DNA of 27,741 nucleotides, from assembly GCA_038046345.1 (NCBI GenBank), contig JBBSWJ010000003.1, positions 1 to 27,741 on the forward strand. The letters are read 5' to 3'. Position 1 is the first letter of the stretch. Every line of letters begins with the position of its first letter. Positions 314 through 917 of the stretch are shown here, piece by piece. Under the pieces are notes generated by a model that worked only from the letters and a program-made list of their open reading frames with translations, was not told the origin of the DNA and did not search any database. The translations under genes were made by a program, and so were the position numbers. The DNA is from Nanobdellota archaeon. Lineage in GTDB: Archaea > Nanobdellota > Nanobdellia > SCGC-AAA011-G17 > JACPNG01.

Positions 314-480
314 ATTAACAGTTACACTCAAGTCGTATATATACCTGTCGATGGTCAACATTTAAAGGAAACTATCAAAAACGAGGATTTACAGTAAAGA
401 TACATGAAGTTTCCTTAGAAGAAGTTATTAGAAACGAACAGAGATAAAAATGAATTAATATTCTGAGCTATAAAATAATA

Positions 481-551
481 AGCGCAGGCTGGGATTTGCA
501 CCCAGGATCAGAGGGTTGCAGCCTCTTGCCTTACTGCTTGGCTACCCGCGC
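481..551 (-). tRNA. tRNA-Cys(GCA), no intron, CCA not encoded
   Basis: Reverse complement folds as GCGCGGG TA GCC AAGCAGTAA GGC A AGAGG CTGCAAC CCTCT GATC CTGGG TGCAAAT CCCAG CCTGCGC T. Anticodon GCA; U73 discriminator typical of tRNA-Cys. Confidence 0.95.
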
Positions 552-635
552 ATAGGATCATTAGTTTACTGAGTGTTTAAATAATTAACTTTGTTAATAT
601 GGGCCCAAGGGGATTTGAACCCCCGATCTACAGCT

Positions 636-658
636 TTCTTCTGGATAACTTATAATAT
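636..658 (-). other. tRNA intron 3 (23 nt, canonical position 37/38)
   Basis: ATATTATAAGTTATCCAGAAGAA. Central helix C32-U33-U34-C35/GAAG, 3' bulge AA|A38, outer helix AGC/GCU. Confidence 0.85.
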
Positions 659-667
659 TAGAAGGCT

Positions 668-688
668 TTAGCGAAACTTTTCAGTTTT
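668..688 (-). other. tRNA intron 2 (21 nt, anticodon stem, position 28/29)
   Basis: AAAACTGAAAAGTTTCGCTAA. Bulge AC|A, 4-bp helix GGCG/CGCU, bulge AA|A, hairpin AAACU-GAAA-AGUUU. Confidence 0.85.
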
Positions 689-703
689 GTCGCCTTATCC
701 AGG

Positions 704-729
704 TTCCCCGAAATGCTTAAAGCAATTCT
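704..729 (-). other. tRNA intron 1 (26 nt, D-loop, position 15/16)
   Basis: AGAATTGCTTTAAGCATTTCGGGGAA. Internal hairpin GAA-U-UGCU(UUA)AGCA-U-UUC; GGG pairs with exon C11-C12-U13; relaxed BHB. Boundary could shift by 1 nt. Confidence 0.75.
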
Positions 730-767
730 CTAGGCTATGGGCCCGCCTAGCTTATTTTCAAATAGAT

Positions 768-783
768 CTTTAAAAAACTTTCT
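768..783 (-). promoter_or_regulatory. BRE-TATA promoter of tRNA-Arg (possibly also tRNA-Cys)
   Basis: Minus strand AGAAAG-TTTTTTAAAG ending 24 nt upstream of tRNA G1. Confidence 0.65.
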
Positions 784-906
784 TTACTGTTTTTTTAAAA
801 CAACCAAGCTTAATCTAAAATATCTTTCATAATCATTAAAGAATTTTCAGTTTTTTGGAGTAACCTTATATTAACCACACTAAAAAAAATATTCCTAAAC
901 AACCTT

Positions 907-913
907 GGAGGTG
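907..913 (+). promoter_or_regulatory. Shine-Dalgarno site
   Basis: GGAGGTG four nt before the ATG at 918. Confidence 0.75.
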
Positions 914-917
914 CTAA

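Follow-up and report, generated by a model that had tools for sequence, protein, structure and literature searches.

The question raised by this locus is whether a perfect acceptor stem and a T-arm lying far apart belong to a working tRNA gene interrupted by several introns, and by which enzyme such a gene would be processed. The stretch of DNA analysed here, called the window, is 27,741 nt long (contig JBBSWJ010000003.1, positions 1 to 27,741 of the forward strand) and belongs to a genome of 821 kb with a GC content of 0.34, assembled in 35 contigs and 97% complete. Window positions 744..600 very probably represent the only tRNA-Arg(UCU) gene of this Woesearchaeales archaeon, interrupted by three short introns of the EndA-dependent type, whose splicing by a single α-type EndA together with RtcB we infer. 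Joined together, the exons give a canonical tRNA of 75 nt, identical or nearly so to intron-less orthologues.

Exon structure, splice motifs and intron-less orthologues

The precursor is 145 nt long, lies on the minus strand (window 744..600) and does not encode the CCA end. Its ends are formed by a perfect 7-bp acceptor stem, the T-arm and discriminator A, and the acceptor stem and T-arm described in the first-pass annotation as enclosing 70 extra nt were confirmed at this position. The inserts of 26, 21 and 23 nt that it had placed at tRNA positions 15/16, 28/29 and 37/38 were reproduced with exactly the same coordinates and the same 75-nt product. The extent of the whole gene (600..744) is supported by the acceptor stem and T-arm, by ARAGORN run on the spliced product, and by covariance model R1, which was built from 11 intron-less Arg(UCU) orthologues and aligns the window locus over model positions 1-75 with 50.8 bits.

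All parts of the gene are on the minus strand. Exon 1 (730..744) covers tRNA positions 1-15, i.e., the acceptor 5' strand, U8 A9, the D-stem 5' strand and A14 G15. Exon 2 (689..703) contains the remaining D-loop (G18 G19 A20), the D-stem 3' strand, G26 and positions 27-28, and exon 3 (659..667) contains positions 29-37 with the anticodon UCU at window 662-660. Exon 4 (600..635) covers positions 38-73, encoding the anticodon-stem 3' strand, variable loop, T-arm, acceptor 3' strand and discriminator A. These exons are separated by intron 1 (704..729, 26 nt, HBh'-type) at 15/16 in the D-loop, intron 2 (668..688, 21 nt, HBh'-type) at 28/29 in the anticodon stem 5' strand, and intron 3 (636..658, 23 nt, hBH-type) at the canonical 37/38 site. 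The GC content of the exons is 0.59, and those of introns 1, 2 and 3 are 0.38, 0.29 and 0.22. A candidate archaeal TATA-like box, a T-run followed by AAAG, was read from the sequence at 768..777 (minus strand), some 24-33 nt upstream of the first tRNA nucleotide. No ORF of at least 80 aa overlaps window positions 362-917 on either strand, and the sole neighbour is an intron-less tRNA-Cys(GCA) gene at 551-481 on the same strand.

Removal of the introns (70 nt in total) gives a 75-nt product that ARAGORN identifies as tRNA-Arg(tct) with a complete cloverleaf. All 21 stem pairs of this product are standard (20 Watson-Crick pairs and one G-U pair in the T-stem), and U8, G18 G19, A20, U33, A37 and the T-loop UUCAAAU are retained. 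The anticodon loop carrying UCU is 7 nt long and contains U33 and a purine at position 37, and both A20 and the orthology described below also fit tRNA-Arg(UCU).

For the splice motifs, the archaeal bulge-helix-bulge (BHB) rule was applied, in which intron positions N-5 to N-2 pair with four exon bases, those lying immediately before the final two bases of the exon, and the cut was placed after the second base of each 3-nt bulge (marked below by an arrow). Intron 2 has a central helix GGCG/CGCU with 4/4 pairs, bulges AC↓A and AA↓A, and a 5-bp inner helix closed by a GAAA loop. Intron 3 has a central helix CUUC/GAAG, also with 4/4 pairs, and bulges UA↓A and AA↓A; its outer helix is the 5-bp anticodon stem and its inner helix is almost absent. 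The weakest motif of the three is that of intron 1. Its central helix has 3/4 pairs (two of them G-U) and its bulges are AG↓A and AA↓C; the inner helix consists of 6 pairs and one mismatch, and there is no outer helix. The strict hBHBh' motif was thus found in none of the three introns, each of which has one flanking helix and never both.

The BHB test was passed by 1.25% of random genomic positions, and none of 100,000 trials with shuffled introns gave a pass at all three sites, so that the BHB-like geometry proposed for every insert in the first reading of the sequence held against chance. For intron 1, the proposal stood in part: the inner helix supports it, but the central helix has just three of its four pairs and the BHB fold is not the local minimum, at -6.0 kcal/mol against a local minimum free energy (MFE) of -9.1 kcal/mol, i.e., 3.1 kcal/mol higher. 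Over the whole precursor, the MFE fold includes the motifs of introns 2 and 3 and excludes that of intron 1, and the conformation containing all three BHB motifs has -38.4 kcal/mol compared with -47.2 kcal/mol for the MFE.

In a splice search, up to three BHB-compatible excisions were enumerated, and BHB geometry and cloverleaf were scored jointly. The splice given above ranked first with a score of 24, followed by solutions scoring 23 and 21; this top rank requires that one mismatch be allowed in the flanking helices, and a stricter filter misses this splice. The lower-ranked solutions, together with the weak motif of intron 1, leave room for the same gene being spliced differently, either with a D-loop intron of 29 nt placed three bases towards the 3' end, which would leave a D-loop of 7 nt, or with two introns, one of them a 50-nt excision. 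Such splices lose G18 G19 or alter the D-stem; the next-best solution, which moves intron 1 only, loses G18 G19. A different splice is therefore considered very improbable, also in view of two intron-less orthologues (L103 and L004) whose D-loop and D-stem are exactly those given by the three-intron splice.

To collect orthologues, 40 related genomes were searched by BLAST with the locus, and metagenome contigs were scanned for a matching pattern. The metagenomic gene L103:9380-9454 is intron-less, 75 nt long and the same as the predicted product through all three junctions, differing by one compensated acceptor pair and in the T-stem only. The gene L004, from a genome of the same family (G013), is likewise intron-less and matches the junctions save for one D-loop base. 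Further intron-less orthologues with few substitutions were found in L017, L020, L005 and L015, and most of the intron-less orthologues are followed by tRNA-Cys(GCA), as in the window. When aligned with them (alignment A1), the window gene appears as three clean insertions, and this comparison is, in our judgement, the decisive evidence that the inserts are introns.

Uniqueness of the gene and tRNA introns in the rest of the genome

The unspliced locus was missed by ARAGORN with the intron option on or off, and by the Rfam tRNA model RF00005 at E<=10 on a 241-nt slice and at E<=1 genome-wide, as had been predicted for standard annotation. With this locus overlooked, the genome would seem to have no means of reading AGA, the arginine codon it uses most, so automatic annotation gives too small a set of tRNAs for this and similar DPANN genomes.

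The dominance of AGA, which the first-pass annotation had noted in the ribosomal-protein genes, is genome-wide: AGA makes up 4811 of 8507 arginine codons (57%) in 615 long ORFs, and 70% of the arginine codons in the ribosomal-protein block of the window. The proposed check for another tRNA-Arg(UCU) gene returned none in four independent searches of the 97%-complete genome; no second gene was recovered by ARAGORN with or without introns, RF00005, a scan for T-arms and acceptor stems, blastn-short or R1, whose remaining matches in the genome are catalogued tRNA loci with no Arg(UCU) among them. A genome-wide scan for the UCU anticodon arm gave 514 matches and was too unspecific to reveal a second gene. 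The other arginine tRNA genes have the anticodons GCG, UCG and CCU, the CCU gene carrying a 14-nt canonical intron. A second tRNA-Arg(UCU) gene, or a second EndA subunit, may sit in the missing ~3% of the assembly.

Introns were observed in 18 of the 38 decoded tRNA genes, about 27 in total, with some boundaries uncertain. In this count, the 35-nt intron of tRNA-Ala(UGC) was taken once although the script splits it into two nested pieces, and tRNA-Tyr was counted as having one intron, the script being ambiguous and ARAGORN giving one 56-nt canonical intron. The sites include the D-arm, the anticodon stem 5' strand, 37/38, the variable region and the T-arm, and most of them are non-canonical. 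Five genes have two introns each (Ile-UAU, Ile-GAU, Lys-UUU, Ser-GCU and Gly-UCC). Three introns were found in the initiator tRNA-Met(CAU) gene (L118, C21:12092-12251 (+), 160 nt, with an A1:U72 pair), with lengths of 22 nt (28/29), 35 nt (37/38) and 28 nt (close to the border of the variable loop and T-stem). Local alignment of introns 1-3 with the 24 other tRNA introns of the genome gave scores within the shuffled null, and the idea of intron transposition was dropped for this reason.

Several individual genes were also noted. The two-intron tRNA with anticodon UAU (Ile) at C2:10423-10557 (+) represents a rare archaeal way of reading AUA. The tRNA-Ala(UGC) gene (L117, C5:42224-42331 (-)), which has a G3:U70 pair and lies directly downstream of the 16S rRNA 3' end, contains a T-loop intron of roughly 35 nt, and tRNA-Phe(GAA) at C27:1838-1943 contains a 32-nt T-loop/T-stem intron.

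That standard finders do not see the gene, and that the assembly is unclosed (35 contigs), would also suit a decaying pseudogene with three insertions, AGA being read by an undetected tRNA. Against this, the exons carry no damaging substitution relative to the orthologues, all three inserts have a splice-motif geometry not expected by chance, introns of the same kind are present in 17 other tRNA genes of the genome, and no other tRNA-Arg(UCU) was found for a codon that accounts for 57% of arginine codons. A pseudogene is thus regarded as very unlikely, and an intron-bearing, functional gene remains the preferred reading.

Distribution of tRNA-Arg(UCU) introns among Woesearchaeales

The intron state of tRNA-Arg(UCU) was surveyed by a pattern search of 121 genomes (120 of the Woesearchaeales order and that of the window), which matched 19 others. 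Among these 19 genomes, the gene was intron-less in 6, had the 37/38 intron alone in 7, had the 28/29 intron alone in 2, had the 37/38 intron and one upstream intron in 3, and had three introns in 1 (G058: D-loop near 20/21, 28/29 and 37/38). The 37/38 intron was therefore present in 11 of the 19 order relatives matched by the pattern. In the family of the window's genome, G002, G003, G005, G013 and G014 are intron-less and G001 has the 37/38 intron alone; the window's genome is the only one of its genus in the comparison set. Since the same-family relatives examined have no intron or the 37/38 intron alone, the triple-intron state looks derived in the lineage of the window.

Introns at 28/29 were found at six other Woesearchaeales loci, three in metagenome contigs (L108, L110 and L112) and three (L122, L127 and, in G058, L123) in the genomes G111, G083 and G058. 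In all six, the central helix of GGCG with CGCY and the bulges are kept, and the inner helices are unrelated in sequence yet still pair, a pattern that would be expected for a splice motif constrained by structure. Compensatory change is available for the 28/29 intron only, over seven loci in all, and no homologous introns were found for a covariation comparison of introns 1 and 3. Judging from these sequences, tRNA-Arg(UCU) genes across Woesearchaeales have repeatedly used the 28/29 site for introns.

The three-intron gene of G058 (family f22) lies at L123:1414-1560:+ and is 147 nt long. It is independent of the window gene and contains introns of 30-31 nt in the D-loop near 20/21, 23 nt at 28/29 and 18 nt at 37/38, with 4/4 central-helix pairs in all three. 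An assembly or binning artefact, in which the inserts or the whole locus would be unreal, is scarcely credible, since errors do not make three BHB-bearing inserts whose removal restores a perfect tRNA and independent assemblies of relatives share the 28/29 design, G058 even having another three-intron allele, despite the metagenome-type assembly and the absence of this triple-intron allele from an independent assembly among 13 metagenome contigs.

Other inserts were also observed in relatives. Upstream inserts occur at about 9/10 in L125 (G100) and at about 26/27 to 27/28 in L137 (G077) and L124 (G108); each of these genes also has a 37/38 intron, and those of G100 and G077 were not cleanly resolved by the script. 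In several relatives with an intron-less tRNA-Arg(UCU), tRNA-Cys has a 13-14-nt insert after the anticodon (L004, L005, L111, L113 and L115). As tRNA-Cys is intron-less in the window and insert-bearing in these relatives, the intron load appears to have been swapped between the adjacent genes.

Taken as a series for one tRNA, these states record a fast turnover of introns at preferred sites, from none, through 37/38 or 28/29 alone, to two and then three, with the three-intron state reached twice independently.

Splicing endonuclease, proposed processing and comparison with known systems

The genome contains one EndA gene (C32, L021:1246-1785:+), whose 180-aa product combines a single N-terminal domain with a single catalytic domain at the C-terminus and matches both PF02778 and PF01974. 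The Tyr/His/Lys triad (Y116, H126 and K157) and the motif RVY-x-RG-x-KPG-x-DHAKW are invariant in six Woesearchaeales EndAs (alignment A3). Among proteins of solved structure, the EndA of this genome is closest to the M. kandleri fusion protein, the M. jannaschii α4 enzyme and the N. equitans α subunit. Its residues 14-180 align collinearly with the M. jannaschii enzyme (1A79), the single gap corresponding to one extra M. jannaschii residue. No paralogue or second subunit was detected at E<0.3 by Pfam, protein search or phmmer/jackhmmer, including all six-frame ORFs of the 97%-complete genome. The best other match, a weak EndA-like ORF on contig C17 (E 0.5), proved to be a nucleotidyltransferase with an HTH domain. 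Five relatives including G058 likewise have a single α-type EndA gene, with a highly conserved catalytic domain. The homologues come from records of Candidatus Woesearchaeota, Nanoarchaeota or Nanoarchaeia, in agreement with the DPANN host proposed in the first-pass annotation. A broad-specificity enzyme of (αβ)2 or ε2 type, as would have been expected, was not found; the only EndA is of the α type and has none of the published extra loops.

Three specificity loops with a conserved Lys, which confer cleavage of relaxed motifs, have been described for EndA, CSL/L1 and ASL/L2 being N-terminal insertions and L3 a Lys-rich insertion (PMC5829648, PMC3239211, PMC3488258). L3 was placed here between the catalytic Tyr and His, on the basis of K241 and K244 lying between Y236 and H251 in ARMAN-2 (PMC3488258). 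All three loops are absent from the genome's only EndA, as judged by the alignment with M. jannaschii and by the Tyr-to-His spacing. The present EndA, 41 related EndAs and the M. jannaschii enzyme all show a spacing of 10 residues, compared with 16 in N. equitans α and 15 in ARMAN-2, and therefore there is no L3 insertion.

A four-copy model of the EndA scored 0.61 against 0.35 for the best control. Of 30 proteins solved as homomeric pairs, 20 reached this mark, as did 1 of 23 solved as single chains. Contact agreement between the runs was at least 64% and pLDDT at least 81, and the C-terminal strand 171-180 forms part of the interface. As the similar M. jannaschii tetramer (1A79) is already solved, the score may merely echo that structure, and the model shows likeness only. 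A homotetramer (α4) is probable. One RtcB gene is present in the genome.

The processing of the precursor may thus be pictured as follows. Transcription would start from the candidate TATA-like box about 28 nt upstream, the α-type EndA, probably as a homotetramer, would cut the 145-nt precursor at six sites, and RtcB would join the four exons in three ligations. All three excisions would be needed for translation, because AGA is the commonest arginine codon and no other tRNA gene found reads it. The central helix of intron 1 uses the D-stem 5' strand and that of intron 2 the 3' strand, so the D-stem cannot form together with both motifs, and intron 1 is probably cut before or together with intron 2. 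A cleavage order in which intron 1 does not follow intron 2 is speculation at this stage.

In α4-type EndAs of DPANN archaea, broad specificity has been credited to the L3 insertion in the C-terminal domain (PMC5829648). By this published rule, an EndA without the published loops should not cut introns 1 and 2 efficiently (PMC5829648), and the combination of dense non-canonical introns with a loop-less EndA poses a testable challenge to the current rule for gaining broad specificity. It is possible, and we suggest it only tentatively, that the loop-less, M. jannaschii-like Woesearchaeales EndA is itself a broad-specificity enzyme, cutting HBh' and hBH motifs at a dozen or more tRNA positions. 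If so, CSL, ASL and L3 would all be dispensable for the recognition of relaxed motifs, and these archaea would have reached broad specificity by an additional route that has not been described, perhaps via the invariant Lys in GxKPG immediately preceding the catalytic His.

Both tRNAs with three introns and disrupted tRNAs of DPANN archaea are on record in publications, and the present gene is a well-supported further example. What goes beyond the literature consulted is the recurrent 28/29 site, the two independent three-intron alleles and the loop-less only EndA.

In Thermoproteales, multi-intron tRNA genes carry at most three introns (Sugahara et al. 2008; reviewed in PMC4033280). The present genome resembles them in having up to three short BHB introns per gene at canonical and non-canonical sites, many affected tRNA genes, and HBh' and hBH motifs. 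In contrast, Thermoproteales are Crenarchaeota with an (αβ)2 EndA bearing a crenarchaea-specific loop, whereas the present host is a DPANN woesearchaeon with one loop-less α-type EndA. Intron transposition between tRNAs has been reported in Thermoproteales, but the three introns described here have no similarity above chance to the other tRNA introns of the genome.

Within DPANN, α4-type EndAs of several lineages were linked with increased tRNA gene disruption by Kaneta et al. (2018), whose survey included one Woesearchaeota genome, RBG_13_36_6, and noted incomplete tRNA sets calling for manual curation (PMC5829648). That host belongs to the same superphylum and probably to the same order; the paper does not cover the present gene or its three sites (PMC5829648). 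In their explanation, broad specificity comes from the L3 insertion; the present EndA and its 41 relatives, with a spacing of 10, lack this insertion. Relaxed-motif introns of DPANN archaea are known from ARMAN and N. equitans (PMC3239211). ARMAN-1 and ARMAN-2 (Ca. Micrarchaeum) are similar to the present case as DPANN archaea with ultrasmall genomes, non-canonical intron positions and relaxed BHB motifs (PMC3239211, PMC3488258), but their EndA is a three-unit ε2 enzyme of roughly 390 aa with an ASL loop, compared with one 180-aa unit here (Fujishima et al. 2011; Hirata et al. 2012).

A similar combination of a D-loop HBh' intron and a 37/38 intron in one precursor, with an enzyme having no specific loop, is found in Methanopyrus kandleri pre-tRNA-Glu(UUC), whose HBh' intron was cleaved inefficiently in vitro (PMC5829648). 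M. kandleri has an (αβ)2 enzyme and few such introns, in contrast to three in the present gene and about 27 genome-wide. A further counterpart is the gene of G058: family f22 and a D-loop intron near 20/21 rather than 15/16 set it apart, and the intron sequences are unrelated, but it is the same tRNA in the same order with three introns, and it shares both the central helix of the 28/29 intron and the 37/38 site.
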